A stretch of DNA of 64,000 nucleotides from Candidatus Parcubacteria bacterium. GTDB taxonomy: Bacteria; Patescibacteriota; Minisyncoccia; Phycocordibacterales; JBAYGS01. Below are positions 4,624 to 50,628 of the stretch, one piece after another. Made by a program: the position numbers and the translations under genes. The notes below the pieces were generated by a model. The model was not told where the DNA came from. It saw only the letters and a list, made by a program, of their open reading frames with translations, and searched no databases. The stretch's first letter is position 1; every line of letters begins with the position of its first letter. The stretch is taken from assembly GCA_039795895.1 (NCBI GenBank), contig JBDKKW010000002.1, positions 7,347 to 71,346 of the forward strand. Direction: 5' to 3'.

Positions 4624-4716
4624 CGAGGGTGTCCATTTTAAAACATTGCGCAGGCGGGTAGCCGAGCATAGCAAATTTTCAGCAGAAAATTATGCGCGTT
4701 TTAAAATGGACACCCG
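4624..4716. repeat. Hairpin-in-hairpin inverted-repeat element B (19-bp inverted repeat ggtgtccattttaaaac, 53-nt spacer with internal hairpin) in the lysK leader
   Basis: Arms at 4624-4644 and 4698-4716. It has the same architecture as element A and shares the ttttaaaac inner ends. Confidence 0.7.
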
Positions 4717-4725
4717 AGCGAGTCT

Positions 4726-5193: not shown

Positions 5194-5274
5194 ATATTGT
5201 ATAACTATGGAGGAAGTATAATCGTTTCCTGTCTAATGTCAATGGTATACACCTCAATACCTCGTTAAAAATGG

Positions 5275-6987: not shown

Positions 6988-7022
6988 ACGGCGTTATATC
7001 AATGGAACGTTGCCCCAGTATA

Positions 7023-7304
7023 CTACATTCTGATTCGCAATCGAGCGCGCAACCGTGTCGCTCCAAAGACCAAAAAAGCAACACCAGCTACCACTCCCGC
7101 AATCAGGGTAAAACTCTCTGTATGCCCATACAAGACAGCGTACAAAGCCACAAGCACAATCGCCTCACCATAGGTTTCCACGTACCACATCGCAATCAAG
7201 AGGAGTATACCGAGCACTCGCCAATCGACCACAAACATAGCGCAAAAGAAGAGGACAAAAAGTCCCACCCGAATCACCACTCTGTTTTCTATCTTTTCAC
7301 GCAT
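7023..7304 (-). CDS. mreD: Rod shape-determining protein MreD (putative)
   Basis: 93-aa polytopic membrane protein between mreC and the PBP2 gene; the call rests on synteny. Confidence 0.5.
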   Translation of the reverse strand: MREKIENRVVIRVGLFVLFFCAMFVVDWRVLGILLLIAMWYVETYGEAIVLVALYAVLYGHTESFTLIAGVVAGVAFLVFGATRLRARLRIRM

Positions 7305-7306
7305 AC

Positions 7307-8119: not shown

Positions 8120-9188
8120 CCTCGATTAAGACTTCACGGAACGTACGCAAATCTTCAAGAATAATACCTGTCCCTCGGGCAATCGCCGTTAGCGGATCAT
8201 CAGCGACATGCACGGGAATCTTCAAAAATTCTTGAAGGAGCGCATCAAGACCCTTGATCAAAGCTCCCCCACCCACCATATAAATACCTCTTTGCATCAC
8301 ATCGGCGAGGATTTCAGGTGGGGTGGTTTCGAGCACCTGCTTGACCGACTCGACGAGGGTATCGATCGACTGTGCCATCGCTTCTCGAATATCAGCATCA
8401 GTGATCACCACTTCGCGAGGAAGCCCGGTCACGAGGTCTCGTCCACGAATCGTCATCTCGAGTGCTGGTCGATCAGGCATCACCACACCGATAGCAATTT
8501 TGACCTCCTCGGCAGTCTTTTCACCAATCAAAATTTTAAACTCACTGCGGATGTACGAGATGATGTCGTTGTTGAGCTTGTCACCGGCGATTTTGAGATT
8601 TTTTGAACGAACAATACCGCCAAGTGAGATCACTGCGATATCAGTCGTCCCGCCACCAATATCAATCACCATATTTCCCACCGGCTCCATCACCGGCAGA
8701 CGAATACCGATCGCTCCCGCCATTGGTTGCTCCACCACAAACACCTCTCGTGCGCCGGCATTACGAGTGGCATCGCGTACTGCGCGAGTCTCTACGTTGG
8801 TCACACCAGATGGCACACCCACCACTACGCGCGGACCAAACATCTTTTTGTGTTCACGCTGGCACTTGTTCATCAAATACAAAATCATCTCTTCGGTCAC
8901 CTCGAAATCAGAAATCACTCCGTCGACAAGTGGTCGTACCGCCGTGATGTGTGCAGGTGTGCGTCCGAGCATTTGCTTGGCTTCCTTTCCTACTGCCACC
9001 ACTCGACCGGTCTTGCCATTCACCGCCACCACCGACGGCTCATTGATCACAATCCCCTTGCCACGCAAATACAAGAGCGTATTCGCCGTACCCAAATCAA
9101 TCCCAATATCATGACTAAGTAGGGAGTATAATTTTTCGAGATGTTTTTGTATCATAAAAGTATTAAGCAGTATTTTCTGAATCCTCAC
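8088..9188 (-). CDS. mreB: Rod shape-determining protein MreB (actin-like ATPase)
   Basis: IGIDLGTANTLLY ... NEPSVVAV ... DIGGGTTDIAVIS actin-fold motifs; 366 aa. Confidence 0.9.
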   Translation of the reverse strand: MRIQKILLNTFMIQKHLEKLYSLLSHDIGIDLGTANTLLYLRGKGIVINEPSVVAVNGKTGRVVAVGKEAKQMLGRTPAHITAVRPLVDGVISDFEVTEEMILYLMNKCQREHKKMFGPRVVVGVPSGVTNVETRAVRDATRNAGAREVFVVEQPMAGAIGIRLPVMEPVGNMVIDIGGGTTDIAVISLGGIVRSKNLKIAGDKLNNDIISYIRSEFKILIGEKTAEEVKIAIGVVMPDRPALEMTIRGRDLVTGLPREVVITDADIREAMAQSIDTLVESVKQVLETTPPEILADVMQRGIYMVGGGALIKGLDALLQEFLKIPVHVADDPLTAIARGTGIILEDLRTFREVLIEDDDHDLPLKN

Positions 9189-10440
9189 CGGTCGACAGTG
9201 AAATATCCACTACCTGATGATGTGGCACTCTGCGCACCTCGCCAGTCTTGCGATTTTTGAGCTCCACCACCCCTTCATTCATCGTCTTTTCAGAGACCAC
9301 GATGCGAAGTGGAATACCGAGTAAATCTGAGTCATTGAATTTCTCTCCTGCACGAGCATCTCGGTCGTCGAGCAAAACACTGGCACCGTTGGCAGTGAGA
9401 TCAGCATAAAAGCGATCAACAGTTTCTTTTACCGGCACCTTGCCGTTGTCGAGCGACACCAAATGAATATCAAACGGAGCCACTTCTTCAGGCCAAATAA
9501 TACCGTTGTCATCTGAAAGTGTCTCCACAATAGTACCGAGCAATCGCCCTGGACCAATACCGTACGAACCCATCACCACCGACTGCTTTGCACCAGCACT
9601 ATCGAGATACGAGAGTTCGAGCGCATCAGAGAATCGTGTGCCGAGATTAAAGATATTTCCCACTTCCACCGCCTTTTCCACTTTGAGTTCGGTCGCGCCA
9701 CACTCAGGACACTTTTTCATTTCAGCAAAGATTTCATCGTTGACCGCAACATGGCATTTTTCACACACATGAATCGTGTCTTCACCCGCAGAGGTAATCG
9801 TCTGAAATTCGTGTGAGTATTTACTAAAACTCCCACCAGAAGCGTAGGTCAAGTAGGTCTTCTCGCCCAATCCTACGCGTGCAAAGATATTTTTGTATGC
9901 GATTTTTACTTTTTCGTAAAACGTTTCGTGTTCAGCTACATCTTTTGAAAACGAATACAAATCTTTCATCAAAAATTCTCGGCCACGCATAATACCACTC
10001 TTGGCGCGAGTCTCATTTCTAAACTTGGTCTGAATTTGGTATGGATAGACTGGCAAATCACGGAACGAGCGGATATGGTCACGCATCAGATTGGTCAACG
10101 GTTCTTCGTGCGTAAAACCAAGTCCAAGCTCGGTATTGTTTTTGAGCGAGGTCTTAAACCAATTGTCTACTTCCTTGTCACTCCACCGGCCAGATTTCTC
10201 CCACACCGCCTTGTCTTGAAGCGCAGTCAAAAAGACTTCCTGACCACCAATCTTATTCATCTCCTCGCGAATAATCACCGTGATCTTGTTCATCACAAGC
10301 ACTCCGAGCGGTAGCAGTGAATATACTCCTGCCATTTCTTTATGAATAAATCCACCGCGAATCAAAAGCTGAGCATTCTTCGACACCTCATCCTTTGGTG
10401 CCTCCCGTCGAGTTTTGGTAAATAGATTTGATTGCTTCAT
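9163..10440 (-). CDS. proS: Prolyl-tRNA synthetase (short form without editing insertion)
   Basis: 425 aa with class II aaRS motifs and a C-terminal anticodon-binding domain. The N-terminus (MKQSNLFTKTRREAPKDEVSKNAQLLIRGGFI) is ProRS-like, and there is an archaeal-type zinc-binding CxxC...CxxC segment. Confidence 0.82.
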   Translation of the reverse strand: MKQSNLFTKTRREAPKDEVSKNAQLLIRGGFIHKEMAGVYSLLPLGVLVMNKITVIIREEMNKIGGQEVFLTALQDKAVWEKSGRWSDKEVDNWFKTSLKNNTELGLGFTHEEPLTNLMRDHIRSFRDLPVYPYQIQTKFRNETRAKSGIMRGREFLMKDLYSFSKDVAEHETFYEKVKIAYKNIFARVGLGEKTYLTYASGGSFSKYSHEFQTITSAGEDTIHVCEKCHVAVNDEIFAEMKKCPECGATELKVEKAVEVGNIFNLGTRFSDALELSYLDSAGAKQSVVMGSYGIGPGRLLGTIVETLSDDNGIIWPEEVAPFDIHLVSLDNGKVPVKETVDRFYADLTANGASVLLDDRDARAGEKFNDSDLLGIPLRIVVSEKTMNEGVVELKNRKTGEVRRVPHHQVVDISLSTGEDSENTA

Positions 10441-10573
10441 GATAGATTTTGAATTAAACGTATGCCAATACTACCTGAAATGCGCGCAAAATACGATACT
10501 TGATTTTTATTGTACAAGAAGGTATGGTTATATCGGACCGTAGGCACACGCCTACTCAAACGAAAGTTGTTCT

Positions 10574-11260
10574 ATGGAAACTCTAACCTTGACCTCGACC
10601 CGCCTGGACAAACCCTCGCTCAAGCACAAACTCAGGAATCTAAGACACTGCTTTGGCAGTGCCACACTCTTTGGATGTTGCTTGTGGTTGCTCACGTGTT
10701 ATATCTTCACTGGTAAACCACTCGAGTACAACTGGTTTTCCCTCATACTCATTGGGCTTTCGACCACATTCCTCTGTCTCAATATTTTCTTCCTCAAGTC
10801 ACCCCCTCAAAACCATGCAATGGTGGCCGAGGACGGAAGAATCGTCATTGATATCAAACGTGGGAATTATGTGCTCTGGCGGTGGGAATATGCTGACCTA
10901 TTGCGCAAAGGCAAACTGATCGGATACACACCCACATTCCAGACGATTGAGACGAAGGTTGGCGGACTCCGATACACAATCGACATCTGGACGAATCAGT
11001 CACTCGAAGAGAGTCTCGCTCTTGAGAAGATACTCAGCTCGCTCAAAGAAGCACGGGTGAGCACCGCACAGGAACTTGTGTTGTGTCACCTGTATGACAT
11101 TCTTGATGAGCACAAGACGGTCATTACTAGCCTCACCAATCCCCTGCGGACCGAGCAACAAGAAGTATTTCGAGCGCTTCTGGCTAGACATCTCAAACCA
11201 CTCCTTGTTGGTACAGGGATATTAGTGGCAACCCAACATGCAAAATTTGATTGGGCGTAG
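10574..11260 (+). CDS. Hypothetical membrane protein
   Basis: 228 aa with hydrophobic segments; followed by a bidirectional terminator. Confidence 0.5.
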   Translation: METLTLTSTRLDKPSLKHKLRNLRHCFGSATLFGCCLWLLTCYIFTGKPLEYNWFSLILIGLSTTFLCLNIFFLKSPPQNHAMVAEDGRIVIDIKRGNYVLWRWEYADLLRKGKLIGYTPTFQTIETKVGGLRYTIDIWTNQSLEESLALEKILSSLKEARVSTAQELVLCHLYDILDEHKTVITSLTNPLRTEQQEVFRALLARHLKPLLVGTGILVATQHAKFDWA

Positions 11261-16900: not shown

Positions 16901-16997
16901 AAGAACAATCCCCCTTTCTGTCACAGCGTGACCTGGTTGGTTTCTGGCACTACTGTATAGGTTTTGGAGAGGAATGCAAGGAAAAAATTCAATCGGG

Positions 16998-17070
16998 TGG
17001 ACCATACCGGATTCGAACCGGTTGCCTCTTCCATGCCATGGAAGCGCTCTACCAAGTGAGCTAATGGCCC
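16998..17070 (-). tRNA. tRNA-Ala (anticodon GGC)
   Basis: Cloverleaf reconstructed by hand: acceptor GGGCCAT/ATGGTCC with the G3:U70 Ala identity pair, anticodon loop ATGGCAT, and T-arm GGTTCGAATCC. CCA is not encoded. Confidence 0.85.
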
Positions 17071-17150
17071 GTGTGACATATTGTACTTGAAAACAGTGAC
17101 CAAACAACTAGTTGCTTTTTAGTTTAAATCAGGTAAGATACTTTGGTATT

Positions 17151-17223
17151 GGGCCCTTAGCTCATCTGGTAGAGCACCTCATTTGCAATGAGGGGGTGGC
17201 AGGTTCGAGTCCTGTAGGGTCCA
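17151..17223 (+). tRNA. tRNA-Ala (anticodon TGC)
   Basis: GGGCCCTTAGCTCATCTGGTAGAGCACCTCATTTGCAATGAGG...GGTTCGAGTCC...AGGGTCCA; G3:U70 present; divergent from the GGC isoacceptor 80 nt away. Confidence 0.85.
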
Positions 17224-17231
17224 CCGAACAG

Positions 17232-38109: not shown

Positions 38110-38577
38110 TTACTGACTTTGCTGATACTCATTGAGGATCAGAATGAACGGGTATCGCCTACCCGTGTAGGCATAGCCTCGCAAAATATCCTTCATCCCG
38201 CGATGCTCTTCGTGATAGCCGAAGTTGAACGACAGTCGATTGGCCCACCAGTAATACCAGAAGCCTTCGGTTGCCACGAATTCTCGCCAGCCTCGCACAT
38301 TGAATTGCACCAGTTTGGCATTGTATCCGCGACCAGCCGATGAGACTTCGACTCTAATCGGTCGAGTGTCGATCTTTACCACTACCACCCACGGGGCAGT
38401 AATGTGCCATCCGCCAGTCTCCTGAAGCCACACATCACCCGTAATATAATTTCGGGCAATACCCGCTTGCGTGGGTTCGGTGTAGTTGAGGAGTGCACAG
38501 TAGCCAATGAGGATAAGCAGAGACGTTCCACCCCCGAGACCTACCCACTTTTGCCACTTGAGAAGAAAGTCTTTCAC
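38110..38577 (-). CDS. Membrane-anchored protein with truncated SPFH/band-7-like domain (paralog A)
   Basis: 155 aa with an N-terminal transmembrane segment. It shares blocks with the next gene: NAKLVQFN and LRGYAY. Confidence 0.5.
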   Translation of the reverse strand: MKDFLLKWQKWVGLGGGTSLLILIGYCALLNYTEPTQAGIARNYITGDVWLQETGGWHITAPWVVVVKIDTRPIRVEVSSAGRGYNAKLVQFNVRGWREFVATEGFWYYWWANRLSFNFGYHEEHRGMKDILRGYAYTGRRYPFILILNEYQQSQ

Positions 38578-39131
38578 TTCTTTCCTTGTGGTTGAGGGTG
38601 AGTCGCCGGTTGATTAGGAGTCGCAACCTGCACACGGATCGGCTGAACCGGCTGTGTCGGCAGTTGACCTTGATTGGGTTGAAGCACGCTGACCACCGTC
38701 AGAAACGGACAGTCGCGTCCCTCATCACGATCAAAGGCGTATGACTTGAGAATTTCAAGCATACCACTAGTGAGATCTCCCGCATCACGCCCATGCCAAT
38801 CAATAAAGGTTCTCAAACCTTCAGGATTAAACCTGACCAACTTCGCATTCAAGATGCGTGAATTTGCACTGATGGTCACCTGATGAGGACGGAGGTCGAT
38901 GGTGTGCACACTATTAATAACAGGTGTGCGAGTATACCATCCCGGCCGATCGATCGTCTCAATCTGGCCGGTGATACGGTTGTAGTTGAATCCGAGCTCG
39001 TGGACATCAACGTCAGTAACCCACCACATCCGCCAAGCCCCCACACCCAAGACACCGACCACAATAACCACACCCAGAAAAACCAGCAATTTGAAACCAA
39101 GGCTGGAGTCGGAGTTTGAATTTGAGTTCAT
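38574..39131 (-). CDS. Membrane-anchored protein with truncated SPFH/band-7-like domain (paralog B), Pro/Gln-rich C-terminus
   Basis: About 185 aa from MNSNSNS. It has HELGFNYNRITGQIETIDRPGWYTRTPVINSVHTIDLRP resembling the band-7 N-terminus, plus NAKLVRFNP and LKSYAF. Confidence 0.5.
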   Translation of the reverse strand: MNSNSNSDSSLGFKLLVFLGVVIVVGVLGVGAWRMWWVTDVDVHELGFNYNRITGQIETIDRPGWYTRTPVINSVHTIDLRPHQVTISANSRILNAKLVRFNPEGLRTFIDWHGRDAGDLTSGMLEILKSYAFDRDEGRDCPFLTVVSVLQPNQGQLPTQPVQPIRVQVATPNQPATHPQPQGKK

Positions 39132-39306
39132 TTTTTTCCTTTTCTTTCTTTGTTTGTTACAGTACCGCGCCAGAAAAAGCTCTAGCGTATTCCATTTACT
39201 ATTATACACATAAATACAAAGGTGTCAATAGATTCACTTTTCGCTTGCAATTACTCATAAAATATGCTATACTCTCCACAGATTCAAGCTCTGTCCCACG
39301 AAAATT

Positions 39307-39558
39307 ATGAAAAGATTCGCAAAGATCCTCGTGCTCACGATCATCCTGGCCTCGGTCGCAGTGGTCCACCACCATCACCGTAAGGAAATGGCACGGAAGC
39401 AGGCTATCGCGCAATTCCTCAAGTTCGTGAACGAGGAAATGCCGAAGCTCAACGAAGCAGACAAACGGCGAGGCTTCGTTGAATTCCCCGACATCCCCTT
39501 CCCGGTCATCACCGAAGAGGCCCCGAAGGTCCCCGCAAATGAGGCCTTCACCAAGTAG
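39307..39558 (+). CDS. Small secreted/membrane protein with His4 tract
   Basis: 83 aa with a signal-like N-terminus; terminator at 39573-39600. Confidence 0.5.
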   Translation: MKRFAKILVLTIILASVAVVHHHHRKEMARKQAIAQFLKFVNEEMPKLNEADKRRGFVEFPDIPFPVITEEAPKVPANEAFTK

Positions 39559-39572
39559 CACTCCTGCTACAC

Positions 39573-39600
39573 CCCACAGTCACTCTGTGGGTTTTCTTTT
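39573..39600 (+). terminator. Rho-independent terminator
   Basis: cccacagtcactctgtggg followed by ttttctttt. Confidence 0.65.
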
Positions 39601-39645
39601 TGAAAATTAAAACCGATCGATTTGGTCGAACGGTTTGTTGCAATC

Positions 39646-39903
39646 TCACTTCGCTTTCTTCTTTTTTTTCTTTGCCGGCACGACCACAAACTCACTGGGG
39701 TCATACCACGCCTCGTGTCCACCTTTGTGTTGCACCTTGTAGCACAAGCCGTGCGCATCACTGTGGGTAATGACGGTTCCCGTGATTTTCCACCGACGCT
39801 TTTCCCACGCTCCATCTGTCCACTCACTGCGCTTGTCGTGGTTGGGCTTGGTGGTTCGCACTGTGGTCCCGGGCGAAACGGGCGGATATTTCTTGGTGGC
39901 CAT
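39646..39903 (-). CDS. Small basic protein (85 aa), Lys-rich tail, hypothetical
   Basis: Likely start MATKKYPP at 39903; the C-terminus is AKKKKKKAK. Confidence 0.45.
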   Translation of the reverse strand: MATKKYPPVSPGTTVRTTKPNHDKRSEWTDGAWEKRRWKITGTVITHSDAHGLCYKVQHKGGHEAWYDPSEFVVVPAKKKKKKAK

Positions 39904-40135
39904 ACAGAATCCTTTCTTGTATTTATCTTGGTTGCAGAACAATTCAGACGAAAACGTAGCACACAATACCATACAAATCAAATGGGTCGACAGATGACTC
40001 TTGACAAACAATCTATAGTATGCTAGCTTGCAGACATCCGGAACTAATTTCGGAAAACTCAAGCGTAAGACGCATACTTAGGCGTTTTGGCATGGGAGCA
40101 CATCGAAAACAAAAAAGAAAGAAAAGGATAGTATT

Positions 40136-40615
40136 ATGAAAAAGCAAGCGTTCCTCGGCGGTTCATGCAACCCCACCGTCTGGCGTGCCGAGATCGCGAT
40201 CCCTGCCTTTTTGGCTGCGGGTGTCGCCTTCTACAACCCCCAGGTGGATGATTGGAACGAAAAGGACGCCGCCTACAAGGCCGCGGGCATTGTCGGAGGC
40301 ATCACGGAAGTCGAGGGCAACGAAAAGCGTGATTCGCAAGAACTGCTTTTCGTCATCGACAGTCAGACCCGGGCCATCGCCTCGATCCTCGAAGCGACCG
40401 AATATGCCGCGAGTGGTCGCCAGGTCACACTGGTGATCAACAACATCCCGGACGGCACAGTGGTCGAAAATCAGACCATCACCGGACGCGAGCTGAAGGA
40501 TCTGAATCGCGCTCGGTCGTATCTCCTGGATGTGGCCAAGCGCCACTCGGGAAACGTCAGCGTGTTTCCGGACGTCGAGAGCGCTGTCGCTCACCTCATC
40601 GAAAAACTCAAGTAA
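40136..40615 (+). CDS. Nucleoside 2-deoxyribosyltransferase-like (NDT-like) Rossmannoid protein, GC-rich
   Basis: N-terminal FLGGSCNPT (compare NDT YFGAGWFTD) and LLFVIDSQTRAIASILEATEYAASGRQV (compare GLGMELGYALSQGKYV, which carries the catalytic Glu). Its GC content is well above that of the flanks. Confidence 0.5.
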   Translation: MKKQAFLGGSCNPTVWRAEIAIPAFLAAGVAFYNPQVDDWNEKDAAYKAAGIVGGITEVEGNEKRDSQELLFVIDSQTRAIASILEATEYAASGRQVTLVINNIPDGTVVENQTITGRELKDLNRARSYLLDVAKRHSGNVSVFPDVESAVAHLIEKLK

Positions 40616-40740
40616 GCTTTTGTCTGCCTACGGGTAGACGAGAGCAAGTATGTTTCTGCCAAACTAGCTTTTGGTGGAAAGATACCGTCTGCCCTGCAGA
40701 CAAAACACCGTCGGCACATTTGTGCTGGCGGTTTTTTATT

Positions 40741-43587
40741 TTATCTTCCTTGAGAGAGTGTCGTTTCGAGTGTTTGTTCCAAACCTTGTAGGTCGGTGGC
40801 AATAATGTGCGACATCTTTTCTTTTGCTAACTTAAGAAAGGTAATAAAAAAGTCTCGATACACTTTATAGTCATCATTTTCTGCTAATTCTTGGCTTCCA
40901 AAATCTTTTTTCAAGAATTCTTGCAAAGTCTCAACTCCCATCTGACTCTTAAGAATCTCAAGAATCGCCTTATCGGGACTTGTCGCTGATAAGATTGAAT
41001 CAATATGAGGAACCAATGCACTTGCCACCTCAGCAAAACGTCCGGTGTCACTCACCAAAACCAACCCTGCGTTTCTTTTAAGCGCCTCATTGATTTCCAT
41101 AATACTATACAGACCTCCGTTGCCGACCACCAACACCTGCTTTTGTCCCACACTCATCCGGTGATACAGCGCCTCCATATACGCAATATGGGTAATATAT
41201 TTTGAAGTATATTTATCCAAACCCCTCTTATTCCACTCTGCTGGAATAGGTGTCACAAGAGTATCAACAGGGGTATTTGCATATACTGAACCATCACCTT
41301 CCGCAACAAACCTATTTCCTGGAAAGTAGACACTCCCTCCTGGATTGATGGCGAAAAAATGTGCGCGATCAGCGTGCGCCAAATGGCCATACTGCCTACC
41401 ATACTCGATGTTTAATTGCCCAAAGACCGTGCCTATTCCTGATTGTGTCCCTGGCACACCGACATTAGCCTTATGCGCATGAGCGACACGACCAACCGTG
41501 TCACCAAAGATTTGCAACGGATTCACGACCCCGTCCAAATGTTTACACCCACCAATAATATTAATCAGAGGCCTATCACGATCAATCCTCAATGCATCGA
41601 GACATGACTCCTCAATATGAAATGGAATAGTTTGACTAGGATCATTCAACCGATACTCAAGTGACACCATACGGGCAGTCACGCCTTGATTACTTACTGC
41701 CTCATCGAAACCAGTAGGACAGATCTTGCGAGCTCCTACGATAAATGCATCATCAAATACTACATCAGTGGTTTGCACCTCGGGAGAAAACTTTTCCTCA
41801 AAATGTCTCTGACTAAGAATATTTTTATAGAGGAAGGTTGAGTATTCCTCTTTTGCTTGTTCAAAAAGAGCAATCAGTGCGTTTGTAGAATCAGAGTCAG
41901 AAGGCGACTGTCTAACCTTATCATACAAACTGTTCGCGACCGCATATTTCTCAGAAACGTTATTCAATACAAAATGAAGACAATTTTCAATAGAATCAGA
42001 TACATACATGTCTTTCCGCAAGCTCTCTAGCGAGTTTGAAAAAGAGTGAAAAATTCGCAAAGCACTCTCGAGACCGTCGTACGATGCGCGATCAAACATC
42101 GGCATCCTCTCAAAAACACCTCTTACGTGTGGTGGTATATGCTTTTTCTCATTGATCAGTACTCGCGCAAGCACCGCATCATGCATAACCCCCACAAATG
42201 AATGTTGGTCGCCTTCCTTAGACTTTTTATATTGTCCGCGAAAGACCGCATATCGATCAGCCTCAGATGTTTGTCCGGTATGTGAGAGAAAATGGTGGAC
42301 CAATTTTACAATATTGTAATAATTAGGACTATTCAATATCTTCGATTCCACCTCATACGAATCAGTAGCGACTCGATTTGCCGAGTACCCAGATAATTCA
42401 ACCGACTCCTTTGTATAGATATAACCACTTATTAAGCTCGTCATCTCTTCTGCGAGTTGCATAATCAACACACACTCCTCTTTTGATTGAGCCTGTTCAA
42501 TGATACCGTCGGGAAGTATCCACCCGTTCTCAACAACACTACGCGCCACCGATGCGGGACCAGTTTTTTTTACATACTCAAAAAAAGTATTTTCGGCACA
42601 ACCTACTCGTGTCAAAAACTGCCCATCTTGATTCTGCTGTATTACACCAACAGTACCGCGTTCATTATTTGTTTTAGCCCGTTGAACTTTTAGTTCAGTG
42701 ACCGAATCAGCGTCGAGCCAATTTCCACGTTCAAATTCAGTAATTGTCGCATCATCAATCAAGCCATATGGTAGATGCGAATAAAAACCAGAAAAAGTGA
42801 TCGAGATACCGTTTGAATCCAACAAAATATGTGCTCGATCTTTGACGCGTAACGGCTCCGCTCTACGAGACATAAAAAGATGATTGATGATTCGGGCACG
42901 CTCACGACGAGCTTCGTGTATCAATTCCCCGCCCTCGAGTGTTCGAAGCGTATTAATACACTGTATAATCTTTTGTGGCTCAACACTTTTAAACTTTTTC
43001 TTAGTGAAAATTTCTTCGGGCACAAAACCCAGCTCACAAATAAGATCCTCAATTACTGTCGGATTATTGAACAGCGGATCAATCAAATCGATCCATTTAT
43101 TACTCTGGACATCGAGTATTCTTGCACACTCTTGTTGTAAATCGACTAGATATGTTTCTTGGGTGGTATTCGGGTTTTTATCCAAAAAAGAAAGTCTTTC
43201 GTATAATGCAACCGCACTTACTCCCTTGAGTGATTCTGGGGTCATTTGCGCAGGAACCTCCGTATCAACACCACTACCTGTACCTAGTGTCGACGACCAT
43301 TCCAACAACCCTCGCATAAACACTGCCTCAGCACTTTCCCCTTCAGCGACCAAATGGCGGAGATCTGCCCCTTTGTGTCCATTCAAGTGAGAAAGTAGTC
43401 TAATATTTTCCCCAACAACAGACTTTTGTTCTGGAGACAAAGCATCAAACCACGCATGGTCGACGGATTCGATGGTGACACCATCATCTCCCCGACTCAC
43501 ACCAAAAACAATATCATCTATTCGCGTATGCATATCCTGACTAACGGAATCATCAGCCGATGTTGTTGTAATTATCTTTTCAGGCAT
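40741..43587 (-). CDS. Large multidomain protein (948 aa) with C-terminal SLOG/LOG-like nucleotide-binding domain
   Basis: C-terminal motifs INIIGGCKHLDGVV (GGxxxG) and VVGNGGLYSIMEINEAL (PGGxGTxEE-like) suggest the LOG/SLOG/DprA Rossmannoid superfamily. The N-terminal 650 aa are unassigned. Confidence 0.6.
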   Translation of the reverse strand: MPEKIITTTSADDSVSQDMHTRIDDIVFGVSRGDDGVTIESVDHAWFDALSPEQKSVVGENIRLLSHLNGHKGADLRHLVAEGESAEAVFMRGLLEWSSTLGTGSGVDTEVPAQMTPESLKGVSAVALYERLSFLDKNPNTTQETYLVDLQQECARILDVQSNKWIDLIDPLFNNPTVIEDLICELGFVPEEIFTKKKFKSVEPQKIIQCINTLRTLEGGELIHEARRERARIINHLFMSRRAEPLRVKDRAHILLDSNGISITFSGFYSHLPYGLIDDATITEFERGNWLDADSVTELKVQRAKTNNERGTVGVIQQNQDGQFLTRVGCAENTFFEYVKKTGPASVARSVVENGWILPDGIIEQAQSKEECVLIMQLAEEMTSLISGYIYTKESVELSGYSANRVATDSYEVESKILNSPNYYNIVKLVHHFLSHTGQTSEADRYAVFRGQYKKSKEGDQHSFVGVMHDAVLARVLINEKKHIPPHVRGVFERMPMFDRASYDGLESALRIFHSFSNSLESLRKDMYVSDSIENCLHFVLNNVSEKYAVANSLYDKVRQSPSDSDSTNALIALFEQAKEEYSTFLYKNILSQRHFEEKFSPEVQTTDVVFDDAFIVGARKICPTGFDEAVSNQGVTARMVSLEYRLNDPSQTIPFHIEESCLDALRIDRDRPLINIIGGCKHLDGVVNPLQIFGDTVGRVAHAHKANVGVPGTQSGIGTVFGQLNIEYGRQYGHLAHADRAHFFAINPGGSVYFPGNRFVAEGDGSVYANTPVDTLVTPIPAEWNKRGLDKYTSKYITHIAYMEALYHRMSVGQKQVLVVGNGGLYSIMEINEALKRNAGLVLVSDTGRFAEVASALVPHIDSILSATSPDKAILEILKSQMGVETLQEFLKKDFGSQELAENDDYKVYRDFFITFLKLAKEKMSHIIATDLQGLEQTLETTLSQGR

Positions 43588-43726
43588 TATAAGGTTTATT
43601 CTATCAGCTCAACGTCTTTACGCCAATAATACCCGCACAGACAACCTAATGAAAAATCGACTTTGATTTTTTCTCCAAGTTTGATAGTATACGAGCGTTG
43701 CGTTGCAGAAGCATCACAACACCTAT

Positions 43727-43799
43727 TCCGTGGTAGCTCAGCTGGTAGAGCGCCTCGCTGTTAACGAGGATGTCCTTGGTTCGATCCCAAGCCACGGAG
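43727..43799 (+). tRNA. tRNA-Asn (anticodon GTT)
   Basis: TCCGTGGTAGCTCAGCTGGTAGAGCGCCTCGCTGTTAACGAGG...GGTTCGATCCCAAGCCACGGAG; 7-bp acceptor stem, anticodon loop CTGTTAA, discriminator G. Confidence 0.85.
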
Positions 43800-45503
43800 C
43801 AAAGTTGGACAGACCGAGGCAAAAACCTCGGTTTTGTCTTTATCTGCCTCACACAATCTAGGTTCGAACGCTTCATTTTGTGACTTTGCTGTAAGTAAGC
43901 CCTTAGAGATGATCGAGAACACATCTTTGTTGGTAATACTGAGTTTTTTAGTCTTTAGAATTAGGTTCGAACCGAGAGCCGACAATGCCTCTTGTTTCTC
44001 CTCAAAGGTGCCTGTACGGAAGATTTCACTCAGTCCGACGATCAACTTGAAGGCTTTCTTTGTTTCTTCAAAGTTCGCGGTATCAACTCCGCCAATGTCA
44101 GCGAGTACTTGCTTGATTCTACGCTTATCATTCTCAAGCGACTCTTTGTGTTTTAAGAATTCGTCGTCATTTTCAATAAGTCCCTTCATGCGCATGCGCA
44201 CCAATTCCTGAGACTCACGCTCTTTTTGTGCCAACTCTCGCTCCCATGTACCTTTACGCTCATATTCAGTTTGCCGATCTTGTGTAGCAAGGGTCTCAAG
44301 ATTTTGAATACACCACTGACTCAACGCTTCCGAAACCTCAAGTTTCTTTTGTAGCTCTTCAATCATTGTGTCGTCAATGTGTGACTCACTAACACTCCGC
44401 TCCGGACACGTTTCATCCCTTCGCTTGGTGCAGTGATAGAAAATATAATGAAGATAGGTCGGATGATCCATCTTTTCGATTTTAGTTTCGCACTTGGGGC
44501 ATACCTCACGATTTTTATACGCAAACTTAAATTTGCACTCAAAACAAATAAGTTGATGTTTATGCTCGGCGGTCACGGATCCACCGCAGGTACCACATTT
44601 CGTCCGGCCTCGGTACGGAAACATCTTGATGTTCACACTCGGACACGGCTGACCCTTTCGGCCCAGCATTGCTTGAATCTGCCAATATTGAGCCTCTGTG
44701 ATCATTCTCGGGACAGTCTCATCTACTTCATAGCGTTTAGATTCCCTGTTTTCATCCAATCCGTAAAAGAAACCTGCATAGTATGGGTCTTTAAGCATGG
44801 CATAAATTCGAGAGAGCTTGATAGCCGTGCCACCCTCTTTCTGCCGTCGAATTGTTTTTAATCCCATGACTTCATCAGAGTATTTGAGTAGTGACCGTAC
44901 AGAATATTTACCCGTTAGATACATCTCAAGAAGTTTCTTGACCAATGGAAAGCGATCGGGGTCAACCACGATGCGTCGCTCCCCTTTCTTTCCGTAATCG
45001 TTGATATAGCCAGGCTTTGCAATGCCACCAGGAATACCCATTTCATTTTTCTTGCGAAGGCCTCGCTGAACATCGATACCTTTTGAATCGTTTTCCATCT
45101 TTGCCTGGCTCGTAAGCATACTAAAGAAGAATTTATCTTGTGGTGTATTCCGATAAACCTGACTTGGTGTAACAATTTCGTGTAGGTGACCTTTATCCAT
45201 CTGCTCAATGAGTCGCGCAGCGTCGATGGCGTTTCGAGCAAAGCGATTTGGATGCCACCCGATAACTCCTTGTACTTTTTTCTGTTCAATGTCTCGGATC
45301 AATTGCTCAAAAACAGGACGCGTATAAGCCGTTTTTGCTGAGTGAGATTCGTGCAATATCTGATCATCAGAAAGGTGAATCTTTCTACTCTCAGCGAGCT
45401 TGCGTAGTTCATTGACTTGAGAATCAATCGACAGAACTTGTTTATCATCTGCCTCACTGGACTTGCGCGCATAAAGTCGATAGTTTATTTTTGTTGTTGT
45501 CAT
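43761..45503 (-). mobile_element. Large serine recombinase (resolvase/invertase N-domain, recombinase domain, zinc ribbon)
   Basis: YARKSS catalytic Ser region; recombinase domain; Cys cluster CGTCGG...CFECKFKF...CPKCETKI. The 3' end of the ORF overlaps the tRNA-Asn 3' half by about 39 nt. Confidence 0.85.
43812..43840 (+). terminator. Rho-independent terminator after tRNA-Asn
   Basis: ccgaggcaaaaacctcgg followed by ttttgtcttt. Confidence 0.6.
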
Positions 45504-45922
45504 AAATCAAAAAGTCTAAAATAATAAAGATAATATCCTCATACACTATCAAGATTTTCTTATGTAGTCTGCATTTTTGTGAAGAATTAATTAATAAATA
45601 CTGATACACGGCCGACCGCTCTTAGCCCCCACGAACCCACTCTCCCCCTACCCCCATGGTTGGTACCATTGGAGCTTCGCCGTGCCTTTGATCCGTTTTT
45701 TCTCGGAGGCGACTTGGTTTTAGTTGTGGTACCGCCTAGCGCAAGCGCTCCCGGCCCCGTACATAATTGCGTTAAAAACCTCTCGCTACACCGCAATTAG
45801 AGGTGGCTTAATGTTGTACCGATACCCGGCATCCCAATCTTGTGGGATCACAAAGCCTTCCTATGTCTATTTTATTTTTACAAGCCCCACATAGGTTCGC
45901 CCAGGGCTTGAATGGGCGTGCT

Positions 45923-46174
45923 CTATTGCACACTGGTATTTGCCACAAGAGAGTTTTCCTCTCTTGCTTGAACGAACGCCACCTTTGCATTCGCTCGAGC
46001 AAGAACAGAAAGTCCGACACGTGTCAGGCGCAACAAAGACATACCAAGCTCGACTGCTTGGTCATCAGAAATCGATACGCCGTTTTCGTTGAGTACGATT
46101 TCTTTTAATTCTTTTGTGGCTTTTTGTGACAACATAAAAAGACCCCTCAATCTTAAAGGGGGCTTTTCATTCAA
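45923..46174 (-). CDS. Small hypothetical protein (83 aa)
   Basis: ORF between the recombinase and the regulator; no motif identified. Confidence 0.3.
   Translation of the reverse strand: MNEKPPLRLRGLFMLSQKATKELKEIVLNENGVSISDDQAVELGMSLLRLTRVGLSVLARANAKVAFVQAREENSLVANTSVQ
46140..46172 (-). terminator. Rho-independent terminator for the regulator gene
   Basis: gccccctttaagattgaggggtc plus a T-run on the minus strand. Confidence 0.5.
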
Positions 46175-46194
46175 TATTCATTCATTAATATGAA

Positions 46195-46905
46195 TCAGAA
46201 TTTTTTATTCAACTCTAGCTTCCAGCCAGTCTTTGCTGAATTGAAAATAACCTTATGGCCAAAGGCTTCCTTCAGTCTTTTGTGTAATTCACTTACATAC
46301 TTTGCAACAGTTTGATTAGATATTCCCAACCGCTTATCTGAAGAGAAAATCTCATCTTTAATATCATCAATATTAACAACCTTCCCATGATTATTCATAA
46401 ATAATCGACAGAGGACAGTGAGTTGCCCCCTGAGGGAAACATCTTTTCCTTTATATTTAATTGAGCCATCGACACAAGCACTCAGATCGTAAATCTTTAT
46501 CTCATCTTTGATACGTGCTGTGCGTAATTGCCTTCTAACAATTTGTTCTTTAATCTCCTCAAAATAAAGATCTAACTTAGAAGAATCGTCCACATGTACT
46601 ACAAAGCCAAGTACAGACGGAGGTCGTGGTACAGGGAAAAAATTATCACGACTCGCCATGAGAGAACTACCTGGAGGTATACCCGCCTCAATAGAAGAAG
46701 TACACTCCCTAAAAGAAATGAGGTTTTTCGTCCCTTCACTAACCAACCCTAGAGTTTTTCTTAATCCGTCCCTATCTCTCAACAAAGGATCATCTTTAAT
46801 TCTATGGAAAATAAACTTAACTGATTCCTTGTCCGACCCTCTTAGTTCCATACGAAGAATCTCGTGCACTCTTTCTATCTTTAAAATTTGGAGGTCTTTT
46901 TCCAT
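46195..46905 (-). CDS. Transcriptional regulator with C-terminal OmpR/PhoB-type winged-helix DNA-binding domain
   Basis: C-terminal RLGISNQTVAKYVSELHKRLKEAFGHKVIFNSAKTGWKLE resembles the trans_reg_C pattern. The N-terminal domain is unknown. Confidence 0.6.
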   Translation of the reverse strand: MEKDLQILKIERVHEILRMELRGSDKESVKFIFHRIKDDPLLRDRDGLRKTLGLVSEGTKNLISFRECTSSIEAGIPPGSSLMASRDNFFPVPRPPSVLGFVVHVDDSSKLDLYFEEIKEQIVRRQLRTARIKDEIKIYDLSACVDGSIKYKGKDVSLRGQLTVLCRLFMNNHGKVVNIDDIKDEIFSSDKRLGISNQTVAKYVSELHKRLKEAFGHKVIFNSAKTGWKLELNKKF

Positions 46906-47036
46906 ATTTTTAATACTAATCTCTTTAGGCCCAAATATGCAAGCTTTCGCAAGAATTGATTGTACGAATTGCAGTTAAGATGTTAAACTTTACAATACAA
47001 CTGAATATGGCCTAACCCGTTGATTTTATCAACGGT

Positions 47037-47657
47037 ATGGCAATCAAAAGTCCTGGAAAGACACAAAAACCCCGTCATGGGTGTTGTCTTTCCAGGCCGT
47101 ATTGGGAAACTGGTACGCTCGGCGAAAGCCGAGGCCCCGTGGCGGGATTTTTGTGTACCTCACGGGTTTATCCATTAAAGATAAACCTCATGCAAGAACG
47201 CATTTTAAAAAAGGAGGACAAGCTCGTTTATTGGGCAGGCATCTTAAATCCTAAAAAAGGAAGTCTCGTATTAACGAATAATCGGCTTTATTTCACAGTA
47301 GATAACAAGGAGCTATTCTCTATTCTACTTAGCAATGTTTTGAGTGTGAATTGTCAAAAAGGAATTGGCACCAGTAATGAAAATATGTTCGTGATCTACA
47401 AAGATGGCGACAAAGAAAAGAAGGTCAAAATACAGCACAGTTCACTCATGTCTCTTGCCACTGTTGGTAATCTATCTCGAATTAGTGCTTCCTATTTCTC
47501 CTCATGGGAGCAGGCTATCAACTCAGCACGCTCAGGCAATCAGGACAACGAAAAAGGCTCGATAGATGATTTAGAGAGACTCTCAGAACTTAAAAAGAAA
47601 GGTATTTTAACTGAGGAAGAATTTTCTGCAAAAAAGAAGCAGATACTTGGCATATAA
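47037..47657 (+). CDS. SHOCT-domain protein with N-terminal PH/GRAM-like domain
   Basis: C-terminal LSELKKKGILTEEEFSAKKKQILGI matches the SHOCT motif. The likely true start is MQERIL at about 47190, since the upstream part of the ORF is a structured leader. Confidence 0.6.
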   Translation: MAIKSPGKTQKPRHGCCLSRPYWETGTLGESRGPVAGFLCTSRVYPLKINLMQERILKKEDKLVYWAGILNPKKGSLVLTNNRLYFTVDNKELFSILLSNVLSVNCQKGIGTSNENMFVIYKDGDKEKKVKIQHSSLMSLATVGNLSRISASYFSSWEQAINSARSGNQDNEKGSIDDLERLSELKKKGILTEEEFSAKKKQILGI

Positions 47658-47659
47658 AT

Positions 47660-48133
47660 ATGAAAAAGATTTATACATTCTTTCTGGCAATCCCCTTATT
47701 TCTCTCCACAACCCCCACCTTCGCCTCCACGCACTGTCTCTCCAACCAAGCACTGCCTGATCACACCTGTACCCCAGGAGCAATACTCACCACAGACGCT
47801 CTTATCGTCTGTGTCTCTGGCTACACTAAAACCGTCCGTAACGTTTCTACGGCAGTCAAAAAGATGGTATTCAAGGAATATGCTATTCCGTGGTCACTAC
47901 ATAGTAACTACGAAGTAGATCACTTGATTAGTCTTGAGCTGGGCGGAAGCAATGATGTTAGCAACCTATGGCCTGAATCGTACCTAATCAAGGATGGATC
48001 GCGTACCAAGGATACCTTTGAGAACTACCTCCATAGACAGGTGTGTGGAGGCAAATTGAGCCTTGTGGAGGCCCAGAAGGAGATCAAGGGAGGTTGGAGA
48101 GAGTATTATCGGGAGTGGAAGCACTTGAATTAG
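47660..48133 (+). CDS. Secreted HNH-family endonuclease
   Basis: Signal peptide followed by EVDHLISLELGGSNDVSNLWPE (HNH motif). Confidence 0.6.
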   Translation: MKKIYTFFLAIPLFLSTTPTFASTHCLSNQALPDHTCTPGAILTTDALIVCVSGYTKTVRNVSTAVKKMVFKEYAIPWSLHSNYEVDHLISLELGGSNDVSNLWPESYLIKDGSRTKDTFENYLHRQVCGGKLSLVEAQKEIKGGWREYYREWKHLN

Positions 48134-48807
48134 TTACAAGGATTTTTCTGTGTAAATTGCTTAACCAGAACTGAAAAATTACTCCACAGACTCGGATCAA
48201 CTTCTTGATCTCTCTTGATTAAACTCTGGATGTCTTTATTTTCCCATGTCTTTTGTATTTGATAACCAAAATCAGCGTTTATCATACTACACTCAACAAT
48301 ACCCTCCCGATAAAAGTTTCCCATTTCCTCAAAAACACCCAAATAATTTTCTACCTGACCCTTAGAAAATCCTGGGGCACCAGTCCGATTAAGAATTTTT
48401 GTACTTGGATCCGCCGAATCTAATTTATCTGAAATAGCTGAATAGGTTGGTTGGTTAAGCTGGGTATCAAAATTAAGCACAATATCGGAGGAATCCTTGA
48501 GATGATTCTCGTGTAGTTGATCCTTGGAAATCCAAACTGTCGCAAAACCAACAATTAATGCGATCATTACTCCTGCAATACTTATCCTATTGAGAGCCGT
48601 GGCCAATTTTCCAGCAGCATCACCACTCTCTTTTGCTTGTGCAGTAACAGCATCAAGAATCTTCTTGATCTCAACCATTGCGTTTTTTAATTCAAGTACT
48701 GACTTCGCAATGAGAACCGACTCGGATTTCTGAGCCCGAGTATCTCCACCTTCACTTACATACTCCGCCAATTGTTCAATGCTTTTACTAAAAAGATTTT
48801 CTGGCAT
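48130..48807 (-). CDS. Hypothetical membrane protein
   Basis: 225 aa with one transmembrane segment. Confidence 0.45.
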   Translation of the reverse strand: MPENLFSKSIEQLAEYVSEGGDTRAQKSESVLIAKSVLELKNAMVEIKKILDAVTAQAKESGDAAGKLATALNRISIAGVMIALIVGFATVWISKDQLHENHLKDSSDIVLNFDTQLNQPTYSAISDKLDSADPSTKILNRTGAPGFSKGQVENYLGVFEEMGNFYREGIVECSMINADFGYQIQKTWENKDIQSLIKRDQEVDPSLWSNFSVLVKQFTQKNPCN

Positions 48808-48982
48808 AAATATACTGGGTGAGTAAGGACTTGAATGAGACGTTGAAGATAAGTCATCATTTTATCATACCCCGCTCAGTTTCAGTTTCTTGCAAAAAGT
48901 GATTTGTGTCAAATTGCATCATCTAAATAAAAGCCTTAAGGACTTCTTGAGTACCCTAAATTTATTATGTAAATCAGCTATA

Positions 48983-49969
48983 TTAGTTGATCTTAAAATT
49001 AAATGGGTAAGGGATGTATTCTTTTACAAATTTCTCAAGTGACTTCATTTCCAAAGGCGAGAAGATAAAATTGAATGAATTGTGTGTTAAGTTATAATTA
49101 AAAATATCCACCATCTGTCTTGTGGAAGACGTGATCCTTTCCTCACACTCCTTTCGTCGATTTAGAGTTACCCCGAGATTTTTTGTTAAAGAAAAGAAAA
49201 CTTCTGTATGAGGGCTCAACAAACTTTTGGGGCTATTATAAAAATCAACCTTTTCCTTGGGTACAAAATAAACTACTGGATTATCGGAAGTTACAAAATA
49301 CCTAGAATCTGACTTTAAAATAGTGAGGTTCATCCTGCGTAATATTTCAGCAATGGGCTCAAGTTCCGTAAGGGCAGTTTTTAAAAAATACCCGTTTGGA
49401 TATTTTAGGTTATATCTTTTTTCAACGATATTCTTTTTTATCTTTTCGGCCTGTTCAAGAGATATCTCCTCCCCTGCCTCTTTTTTTGCCAAGCCAACAA
49501 TTTCTCCCGCAGACATTAGTTCAAATCTTTTGCTTGTATGATGCTTGGAAAGATTCGAGTCAATATCTTCAATTTGTGATTTAAAATGAGGAGTTCGTAC
49601 AAGCATGGCGGCCATAAACAAACACAATTCGTCCTTGATGTCTTCAGTAATCCTTGTATTTATAGCCAATGATTCAACCTTTCCAACCAGGGTGTTATAC
49701 GTATCTTCTCCACAATCTTTAAAAATATCTTCGACATCATCACTACTGAAACCTTCCATACCCGGATCATATAGATTATTCTCCAAACCTATGTTTTTTA
49801 AGCCTTCTTCACCGTTAATTAATAAAATTCGCTTTTCGAATGGAGAATTCTCTTTTAAAAACTTTTCACCCTTCTTGTACATAAAAAGATTACTCTCAAG
49901 TAAAAAATGTCTGAGATATGTTTGAGGAATATAATGATTTCGAATGGTTCTTTTCTTAATTTTAGACAT
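48983..49969 (-). CDS. DUF4238 family protein
   Basis: N-terminal HYIPQTYLRHF matches the DUF4238 signature (HYVPQFYLxxF); lies in an AT-rich segment. Confidence 0.6.
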   Translation of the reverse strand: MSKIKKRTIRNHYIPQTYLRHFLLESNLFMYKKGEKFLKENSPFEKRILLINGEEGLKNIGLENNLYDPGMEGFSSDDVEDIFKDCGEDTYNTLVGKVESLAINTRITEDIKDELCLFMAAMLVRTPHFKSQIEDIDSNLSKHHTSKRFELMSAGEIVGLAKKEAGEEISLEQAEKIKKNIVEKRYNLKYPNGYFLKTALTELEPIAEILRRMNLTILKSDSRYFVTSDNPVVYFVPKEKVDFYNSPKSLLSPHTEVFFSLTKNLGVTLNRRKECEERITSSTRQMVDIFNYNLTHNSFNFIFSPLEMKSLEKFVKEYIPYPFNFKIN

Positions 49970-50628
49970 AAATACAGTCTCTAACGTAGAAAAATCAATC
50001 GTACAACAATTCTTTTTAAAAAGACAGTTTTAGTGGATAGAGTTGCTATCCACAGGAAAATAAAGTAATATCTCGGACTCGAGATATAATAGAAAAACCA
50101 GCAGATCGTGCTTAAACAATAAGCTGGTTTTCCCTTTAGAAAAGGCTCAGGCTATGCTTGAGCTTTTTCGCTACCAATTTTCTTCCAAATTGGGAAACAT
50201 TTGGCCGACTTAGGTCGGATCACTTTGCCACTTTTCAATTTCTTGAAAGGTATGCAGGCGACCATGACGTAGCCCGCTCGAGTCTGTGTATTCACTGGAC
50301 TTTGTCCCTTTGATTTCAAGTAGCTTCTGCCAACCAAACATCGACCGGTATGGTTGCGACTATTATCCTACCCGACCTGCACAGGAACCAGCGCAGGCTT
50401 AGTGTGATAACACCACTTCAATCTCAAAAAGAAAAAGAACCCACTCCACAGGCCGATAAGATTTCTTATCAGCTGTGGATTAGGTTCTTTTCTTAAAAGG
50501 ACTTCTCTTTTAGCTAATAATGACTCCTGCCGGACTGTGCGTTCCATGTGGATTTTCCACTAGGAACACCTTGATTTTCTCTCGTTCTAGTAATAAAGTC
50601 AAGTGAAACAAAATGTATCTGAGGAAAC

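Follow-up and report, generated by a model that had tools for sequence, protein, structure and literature searches.

A soluble SLOG-domain protein with an exchangeable convergent partner in candidate phyla radiation bacteria points to an undescribed two-gene nucleotide-sensing unit

Introduction

What does a protein of 948 amino acids, with a candidate nucleotide-binding domain at its C-terminus and nothing familiar ahead of it, do for a bacterium of the candidate phyla radiation (CPR), and does its gene belong to the host or to a neighbouring mobile element? The gene in question lies on the minus strand at positions 40741..43587 of a 64,000-nucleotide stretch of contig JBDKKW010000002.1 from a Candidatus Parcubacteria bacterium (assembly GCA_039795895.1), and that whole stretch is referred to here as the window. 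An initial annotation, made from the sequence alone, described the product as a nucleotide-sensing or nucleotide-processing conflict protein with a SLOG/LOG-like domain, set in a mobile context between a nucleoside-deoxyribosyltransferase (NDT)-like gene and a tRNA-Asn plus serine-recombinase junction. The analyses reported here point to the large gene and its NDT-like neighbour as an undescribed two-gene nucleotide-sensing unit, rather than as mobile-element cargo.

The open reading frame (ORF) starts with ATG and runs for 948 codons to a stop codon at 40741-40743, and both the ORF list and the translation agree with the protein as annotated. An identical database protein (P0001) is deposited as a hypothetical protein of 'MAG: Candidatus Parcubacteria bacterium', a CPR metagenome-assembled genome (MAG), and NCBIfam holds no model that matches it. 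Among 5.8 billion clusters, a word-indexed search found 12 that match, and yielded 11 further collinear full-length relatives of 950-1053 aa at 29-54% identity; an exhaustive profile search of 1.84 billion representatives returned 187 proteins at E<=1e-3 and 86 at E<=1e-30. The family is rare, patchy and unnamed, its members are about 1000 aa long, and it occurs mostly in CPR. Species-representative genomes that carry it are labelled Parcubacteria, Saccharibacteria and Uhrbacteria, all of them CPR; non-CPR labels (one Lentisphaerae and three 'Gammaproteobacteria') are provisional, and the proteins under them nest among CPR ones in the tree. The AlphaFold2 (AF2) model of the whole protein has a mean predicted local distance difference test score (pLDDT) of 84.6, no hydrophobic or transmembrane (TM) segment is found along the chain (maximum KD19 1.19), and the protein is predicted to be soluble and multidomain. 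Conservation figures below refer to an alignment of 61 sequences reaching down to 18% identity, supplemented by a second alignment of 51, and fold searches were made by Foldseek with whole models.

A C-terminal SLOG domain of the TRPM clade

The initial annotation placed a Rossmannoid domain of the SLOG/LOG type in roughly the last 250 residues. Both its location at the C-terminus and its superfamily hold, while its extent was underestimated: the module covers some 345 residues (aa 603-948, 40744..41781, minus strand), with a beta element ahead of the Rossmannoid core and a helical extension behind it. Hidden Markov model, fold and motif evidence all place it in the TRPM/LSDAT clade of the SLOG superfamily, with Pfam, Foldseek and profile alignment each identifying a domain like the MHR1/2 region of TRPM channels. 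The protein reaches 28.2 bits with the Pfam model LSDAT_prok (PF18171, 'SLOG in TRPM, prokaryote'), above the gathering cutoff of 25.4 (E 1.4e-6), and 42 of 51 relatives match this model too, with a best E of 2.7e-11. The top 50 Foldseek matches in the PDB are, without exception, chains of TRPM2/3/4/5/7/8 or isolated MHR1/2 domains (E 6.6e-7 to 3.8e-5, probability 1.00, 316-375 aligned columns), and the pLDDT of the query model is about 85-93 across aa 660-940. Profile and structure comparison of the C-terminal half, proposed at the outset as a check, has led back to the SLOG fold and to no unrelated one.

Two motifs that had been read from the sequence, a GGxxxG and a PGGxGTxEE-like sequence, are present as LINIIGGCKHLDG (aa 674-686) and VVGNGGLYSIMEINEAL (aa 819-835), and both are conserved across the 61 relatives. 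The first contains strand 1 and the GG loop of the Rossmannoid pocket, LINIIGGCKHLD (aa 674-685, 41533..41568, minus strand), which aligns with LISVTGGAKNFY of TRPM2; the second is a loop and helix resembling the 'PGGxGTxxE' of LOG (41083..41133, minus strand) and aligns with VVLDGGPGTLNTIY of TRPM2. Further on, DTGRFAE (aa 847-853, 41029..41049, minus strand) aligns with GSGRLAD of zebrafish TRPM2 and carries Arg850, conserved in 97% of sequences. When the family profile is set motif by motif against zebrafish TRPM2 MHR1/2, this last correspondence is joined by LINVIGGC with LISVTGGA, NVGVPGTQSGIGxxFG with WILTGGTHAGVMKHVG, and VVGNGGLYSILEIN with VVLDGGPGTLNTIY. Glycine-rich loops follow strands 1 and 2 and precede the helix after strand 5 (IIGG at aa 677-680, PGTQSGIG at 712-719 and GNGG at 822-825), and all three, each 75-97% conserved, align with TRPM2 motifs. 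The best-conserved positions of the 61-sequence alignment are G680 (92%), N708 (98%), T714 (97%), N823-G824-G825 (95-97%), E831 (92%) and G849-R850 (93-97%).

Arg850 is the equivalent of zebrafish (dr) TRPM2 R334, allowing for a numbering offset between chains 7aov and 6drj, and R334 is a residue of the ADP-ribose pocket of MHR1/2 (PMC7555694). Every motif of the putative nucleotide pocket is conserved, including the R334-equivalent arginine and a glutamate at the position of the catalytic glutamate of LOG. From Arg850 and the conservation of the loops we infer that the domain binds a nucleotide-derived ligand, and the nucleotide-sensing or -processing role that was first suggested would follow naturally from its SLOG identity.

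An N-terminal region of no recognised fold

The remaining two-thirds of the protein had been described as matching nothing recognisable, a description that sequence, profile and fold searches uphold for about 600 residues. No match to this region was found in Pfam, NCBIfam, PADLOC or PHROGs, nor in the PDB by sequence profile, and the best Foldseek values (E 0.23 in the PDB and 0.043 in BFVD) amount to no match by fold.

At its centre is a conserved module (aa 161-390, 42418..43107, minus strand) modelled with pLDDT mostly of 88-95. Of the internal residues, Asp257 and His271 alone are invariant in both alignments (61 and 51 sequences), and R230, G260, P273 and E298, close to them in sequence, are near-invariant. 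The two invariant residues sit in a beta-hairpin, ILLDSNGISITFSGFYSHLPYGL (aa 254-276, 42760..42828, minus strand; strands at 254-256, 260-265 and 268-273 in the model), a candidate active or binding site. A module corresponding to aa 160-390, with the same residues, recurs without any SLOG domain in proteins of 529-894 aa (P0106, P0110, P0114, P0119, P0123 and P0131); since the residues remain intact in these SLOG-less proteins, the module is an autonomous unit with a probable active or binding site of its own. The SLOG-less set P0106-P0131 comes from higher-GC organisms, and shares an N-terminal extension with variants of about 1250 aa (P0044, P0045, P0048 and P0053).

The regions on either side are more changeable. 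The first 160 residues (43108..43587, minus strand) are all-helical in both AF2 models and contain an LNGHxGADLR motif at aa 68-77; they are absent from relatives of about 800 aa, and relatives of about 1250 aa have a different extension of about 360 aa instead. A middle alpha/beta region (aa 391-602, 41782..42417, minus strand) is modelled as a three-stranded sheet at aa 446-479 followed by long helices at aa 500-600, and bears the motifs FRGQYKKS..GDQHSF and ARVLINEKKH, with R475 conserved in 89% and E507 in 92% of sequences. One relative of 745 aa (L016, 7869-10106) has no counterpart of this region (equivalent aa ~320-545), and keeps both the Asp/His hairpin and the SLOG domain.

A convergent partner slot refilled by unrelated families

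Downstream of the large gene, in all 23 distinct loci (dereplicated, and with downstream sequence available), a small ORF on the opposite strand starts 77-250 bp after the stop codon. In the window this is the NDT-like neighbour of the initial annotation, a 159-aa protein encoded at 40136..40615 on the plus strand, whose identity is borne out by a match to the Pfam model Nuc_deoxyri_tr2 (PF15891) of the NDT/DrHyd group, at 55.7 bits against a cutoff of 30 (E 7e-15). Orthologs at 51-63% identity occupy the same tail-to-tail position at seven other loci (L001, L003, L004, L009, L012, L015 and L023). The motifs FLGGSC.PT.WR and IDxQTRA are invariant, as are Asp75 and Glu86 in six orthologs; these two residues and a glycine-rich strand-1 loop, likewise invariant, occupy positions that we take to be those of the NDT/DNPH1 active site, which would give them a catalytic role. 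No related solved structure could be detected for this partner by sequence profile. At L009 it is represented by a 91-aa C-terminal fragment and an overlapping out-of-frame ORF (7621-8070), which may reflect a frameshift, a pseudogene or an error of assembly. Public gene calls at L001 (10988-11506) and L004 (11154-11777) are shadow ORFs on the strand opposite the NDT-like gene, and as a consequence the conserved gene pair is invisible in existing annotation.

These eight loci, L009 with its apparent frameshift included, constitute type A. Together with a divergent NDT-like subtype at L039 and L043 they make NDT-like proteins the commonest partners (10 of 23 loci), spread over Parcubacteria, Saccharibacteria, Uhrbacteria and one MAG labelled Lentisphaerae, and it is this recurrence across CPR lineages that makes the adjacency seen in the window meaningful. 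The other loci hold something else in the same place: a type B protein of 234-244 aa (L007, L008 and L013), a type C protein of 159-181 aa (L005, L014, L027 and L033), a type D protein of about 184-203 aa (L017, L020 and L028), a PGDYG-domain protein (L016; PF14083, E 6e-9) and two unclassified ORFs (L029 and L032). Pairwise profile comparison gave no homology between partner types (hhalign probability below 1% for all pairs), and a link between type D and PGDYG that had been considered was dropped when Pfam gave it no support. By these comparisons the slot has been filled by at least five mutually unrelated families. At L013, in a Saccharibacteria MAG, two large genes stand in tandem (4636-7659 and 7827-10817, encoding paralogs of 1007 and 996 aa), with a single convergent type B partner after both.

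Syntenic loci reveal how precise the exchange has been. Between L004 (type A) and L020 (type D) the large proteins are 76% identical and the flanking genes on both sides 64-84% identical, and DNA homology is lost only over the partner coding sequence (L004 11226-11703, L020 11153-11731). The syntenic pair L012 (type A) and L014 (type C) shows the same break over the partner, so that both pairs record clean cassette replacement. In a tree of the large proteins the partner types are intermingled, which implies that the same few families were recruited repeatedly. Judged by identity, partners can be more conserved than the large protein itself: two loci with large proteins of just 28% identity have type B partners that are 46% identical.

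The coupling is one-sided, in that most NDT-like relatives are without the large gene. With 764 clusters at E<=1e-3, the NDT-like family greatly outnumbers that of the large protein, and of three members sampled on long contigs one is convergent with a 1002-aa member of the large-protein family (L023, E 1e-303) and two are not. One of these two, an NDT-like ortholog at L021 (1-5495; Nomurabacteria contig JACKGF010000001), lies beside genes for an ADP-ribosylglycohydrolase (ARH), NAD synthase, NAPRTase and a NUDIX protein; this neighbourhood hints at a role of the NDT-like family in the metabolism of NAD and ADP-ribose.

A proposed mechanism

The DrHyd, TIR and SLOG superfamilies make up a single clade, which comprises nucleotide N-glycosidases, cyclases and sensors (PMC9503650). 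SLOG domains within it sense nucleotide-derived ligands (cyclic ADP-ribose (cADPR) isomers in ThsA, ADP-ribose in TRPM2 MHR1/2) or cleave N-glycosidic bonds, as LOG does, and DrHyd/NDT-like domains hydrolyse or transfer the base-ribose bond, some of them cyclising NAD (PMC9503650). Against this background, the reading that we favour, and hold tentatively, is that the SLOG domain is a sensor of an ADP-ribose-like nucleotide controlling the Asp257/His271 output module, and that the partner either sets the level of the ligand, by making or removing it, or responds to it. The domain would bind a nucleotide-derived small molecule, most plausibly one that is ADP-ribose-like or derived from NAD; its occupancy would switch the N-terminal Asp/His module, which would act as the output, whether enzyme or binder; and the small partner would make, destroy or otherwise gate the ligand, or would itself be the regulated target. 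Such a sensor-plus-output logic would be that of LSDAT-SLATT proteins, of ThsA in Thoeris and of TRPM2, the output domain being new and the partner exchanged like a cassette. The role may lie in defence and conflict or in regulation of the nucleotide/NAD economy.

A bolder version of this proposal is somewhat more doubtful. It would see a nucleotide-signalling unit of two genes in ultra-small CPR bacteria, in which a full TRPM-MHR1/2-like SLOG sensor is fused to a new Asp/His output fold and served by a plug-in slot, filled afresh at least five times with proteins that are not homologous (DrHyd/NDT-like, PGDYG-like and three orphan families), these being interchangeable enzymes that make or consume the signal, and the whole possibly a CPR-specific immune or host-interaction switch.

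Genomic context and alternative explanations

The best-surviving alternative, which we nonetheless consider unlikely, is that the locus serves housekeeping nucleotide or NAD salvage, the SLOG domain being a LOG-like N-glycosidase or phosphoribohydrolase acting through Glu831 and Arg850 alongside the NDT-like enzyme, in the nucleoside/NAD recycling on which CPR depend. The genomic surroundings lend it some weight. The gene is single-copy, of native GC content and set among housekeeping genes, and the neighbourhoods of its homologs are heterogeneous and again mostly housekeeping (TrmD, S16, RNase R, NAPRTase/PnuC/NMNAT-like, NAD synthase, dNK, PRPP synthetase, SOD and ferritin, among others), with NAD-salvage genes near some of them: NAPRTase, PnuC and an NMNAT-like gene in L003 and NAD synthase in L005. 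The company of the NDT-like gene in L021 is of a similar kind, the NDT-like family is widespread and conserved as expected of a metabolic enzyme, and Glu831 stands, 92% conserved, at the position of the glutamate in the PGGxGTxxE motif of LOG. A rare and patchy family nevertheless fits poorly with a core pathway; the LOG/Lysine_decarbox model of Pfam is not matched, and TRPM sensor domains, which are non-catalytic, come closest in structure; some 600 extra residues with an invariant Asp/His site of their own would be left unexplained; and the partner is replaceable by families that bear no signature of a nucleotide enzyme.

No upstream gene is common to the homologs beyond close lineages. A shared upstream block was seen at L004 (4327-7136), L017 (3040-5409) and L020 (2553-5286), consisting of an orphan of about 284 aa, a NUDIX-CobA/CobO/BtuR fusion or its CobA part, and a trypsin-like protease. 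The labels of these loci include one Uhrbacteria and one 'Gammaproteobacteria', which suggests that MAGs were mislabelled or that a larger segment was transferred laterally.

It is improbable, too, that the large protein acts alone and that its variable neighbour is a by-product of a recombination-prone tail-to-tail spacer, in effect a neutral hot spot. The two genes are indeed convergent and separately terminated. In the window they are divided by a spacer of 125 bp (40616..40740) with terminator-like hairpins for both (40616-40645 and 40707-40732 on the plus strand, the latter followed by a T-run, and 40703-40685 on the minus strand), in which Rfam finds no structured RNA above gathering score; at the other end of the large gene, just 5' of the start codon, a promoter-like site (TTGGCG-17-TAGAAT with an extended-10 TG; 43598..43626, minus strand) is present as a consensus match only. 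Sliding-window identity along the large protein, moreover, detects no region that diverges by partner type, as a solitary protein would have it. However, a neutral site would gather arbitrary genes, whereas the same few partner families (B, C, D and NDT-like) recur beside distant large proteins in otherwise different neighbourhoods.

Slightly less probable again is a toxin-antidote or polymorphic conflict pair, with the large protein as toxic effector and the small convergent gene as a variable immunity protein, antitoxin or trigger. A conserved large gene beside a small one repeatedly replaced by unrelated families is typical of conflict loci, and some restriction-modification and toxin-antitoxin pairs are likewise arranged convergently. 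On the other hand, NDT-like relatives mostly occur without the large gene, and their enzyme-like conservation with an invariant putative catalytic glutamate would be odd in an antidote; nor was any PADLOC match, toxin domain, link to a mobile element or viral relative found. PADLOC (PADLOC-DB v2) matched neither the large gene, nor the partner, nor the left-hand neighbours, and a known defence system was rejected on that account. A phage origin was likewise rejected, as a pattern scan and tblastn found no relatives on IMG/VR viral contigs, and 50,697 phage genomes, searched by tblastn with four of the partner types, yielded nothing. The label of 'conflict protein' given by the initial annotation is weakened accordingly by housekeeping contexts, while the repeated replacement of the partner remains a conflict-like signature in its favour. 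The neighbourhood comparison proposed with that label found homologs among ribosomal, tRNA-modification, NAD-salvage and redox genes, which weighs against it by the annotation's own standard.

That the gene is an imported defence gene carried by a tRNA-Asn/serine-recombinase mobile island is very improbable and largely refuted: although it lies 140 bp from the tRNA and a large serine recombinase ORF overlaps that tRNA, the recombinase ORF terminates in the anticodon loop, with the low-GC segment beyond the tRNA, while the gene is 5' of the tRNA, has native GC, and occurs with its partner in other genomes without a tRNA or recombinase nearby. The junction itself is just as it was first described, with tRNA-Asn at 43727-43800 on the plus strand and the recombinase ORF at 43761-45503 on the minus strand, its stop codon inside the tRNA anticodon loop. 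It belongs to an integrated element 3' of the tRNA (43727-50500), in which GC falls to 0.36-0.40 (at 46-50 kb, within a low-GC segment of 44-50.5 kb), compared with 0.43-0.46 in the SLOG gene. The island extends away from that gene, and the 'mobile context' of the initial annotation is reduced to adjacency. The cargo of the island includes a Trans_reg_C regulator (46195-46905), a SHOCT protein (47037-47657), a DUF4760 protein (48130-48807) and a DUF4238 protein (48983-49969) that provides the only PADLOC match of the region (DUF4238-Pers, E 7e-7). No repeat of the 3' half of the tRNA, which would mark the far boundary of the island, was found in the window.

Two further observations concern the rest of the window. 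Four small ORFs of 131, 119, 211 and 155 aa (38110-39962, minus strand), which overlap or lie close together and are divergent from the NDT-like gene, match no family except for a sub-threshold Band_7 hit, and are not conserved beside homologs of the large gene. At 16996-17225 a divergent pair of tRNA-Ala genes, GGC on the minus strand and TGC on the plus strand, are 80 bp apart.

Significance

The sensor domain found here is of a kind already known; what appears to be new is the architecture and the plug-in convergent partner slot. Neither the combination of a C-terminal SLOG domain with about 600 aa of unrecognised fold nor such a slot was found in the libraries or the literature searched, and none of that literature links SLOG domains to CPR bacteria. 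Thoeris immunity and animal TRPM channels both sense their ligands through SLOG domains; the family would add a third SLOG architecture, soluble, with the SLOG domain at the C-terminus and an unrecognised output fold, in bacteria whose biology is largely unexplored. It would also provide a bacterial model for the way in which an MHR1/2-type pocket transmits ligand binding. The precise and repeated displacement of the partner amounts to a natural experiment: relative to the large protein, all partners should have one function in common, so that solving the activity of a single one would annotate several orphan families. With its intact putative active site, the NDT/DrHyd-like partner is the obvious first target.

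Comparison with known systems

Of the systems compared, the MHR1/2 region of TRPM channels (LSDAT_euk, with the ADP-ribose site of TRPM2) has the same fold and is the best structural match. Four motifs are held in common, namely the GG loop, the xGTxxGxG loop, the GGxxT/S loop with its helix, and SGR(L/F)A(D/E), and the arginine equivalent to R334 of zebrafish TRPM2 is kept in the bacterial family. Identity is nonetheless 8-17%, and the bacterial protein keeps Glu831 where TRPM2 has Asn or Thr. Unlike TRPM proteins it is soluble, lacks the channel, the ankyrin-like MHR3/4 and NUDT9H, and bears its SLOG domain at the C-terminal rather than the N-terminal end.

Canonical LSDAT_prok proteins share the Pfam family PF18171 and a predicted logic of nucleotide sensor plus output domain. 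Their classification as LSDAT-SLATT reportedly goes back to Burroughs et al. 2015, as encoded in Pfam. When their sequences were checked, the nearest LSDAT_prok proteins outside the family proved to have an N-terminal SLOG domain followed by a DUF4231/SLATT two-TM effector, scoring 150-200 bits, which is a predicted sensor-effector design. Members of the large-protein family, in contrast, score about 28 bits, with the SLOG domain C-terminal, no TM segment and an N-terminal region of some 600 aa, and none of 51 members matches SLATT/DUF4231.

Comparison with LOG (cytokinin riboside 5'-monophosphate phosphoribohydrolase) is closest at one loop. The superfamily is the same, the GNGGxxSxxE loop is superimposable on PGGxGTxxE, and the glutamate is kept; however, the Pro and the Gly-Thr of the motif are replaced (GNGGLYSIME, a degenerate form), the window protein is four times longer, and the Pfam scan gives no match of the large protein to the LOG model (PF03641). 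The partner in the window, by contrast, scores above cutoff with Nuc_deoxyri_tr2 and falls within the NDT/DNPH1 (DrHyd) superfamily.

In type I Thoeris, a small TIR protein makes a cADPR isomer, and the SLOG domain of ThsA senses the isomer and switches on the effector domain (PMC9503650). The likeness to ThsA and ThsB lies in a larger SLOG protein standing beside a small protein of the TIR/DrHyd/SLOG clade. The differences are several: the SLOG domain here is of the LSDAT type where that of ThsA is YpsA-like; an effector of the SIR2 or TM kind is lacking; in place of TIR the partner is a DrHyd/NDT-like protein, for which unrelated proteins can substitute; the two genes converge; and the context is not that of a defence island. 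PADLOC gives no match to Thoeris, and Pfam scans of the gene, its partner and 51 relatives contain neither SIR2 nor TIR. The large protein accordingly fits neither the canonical LSDAT-SLATT type nor ThsA, is no LOG enzyme by family model, and belongs to no PADLOC system; of the systems compared, it is to the ligand-sensing MHR1/2 domains of TRPM channels that its SLOG domain stands closest in structure.

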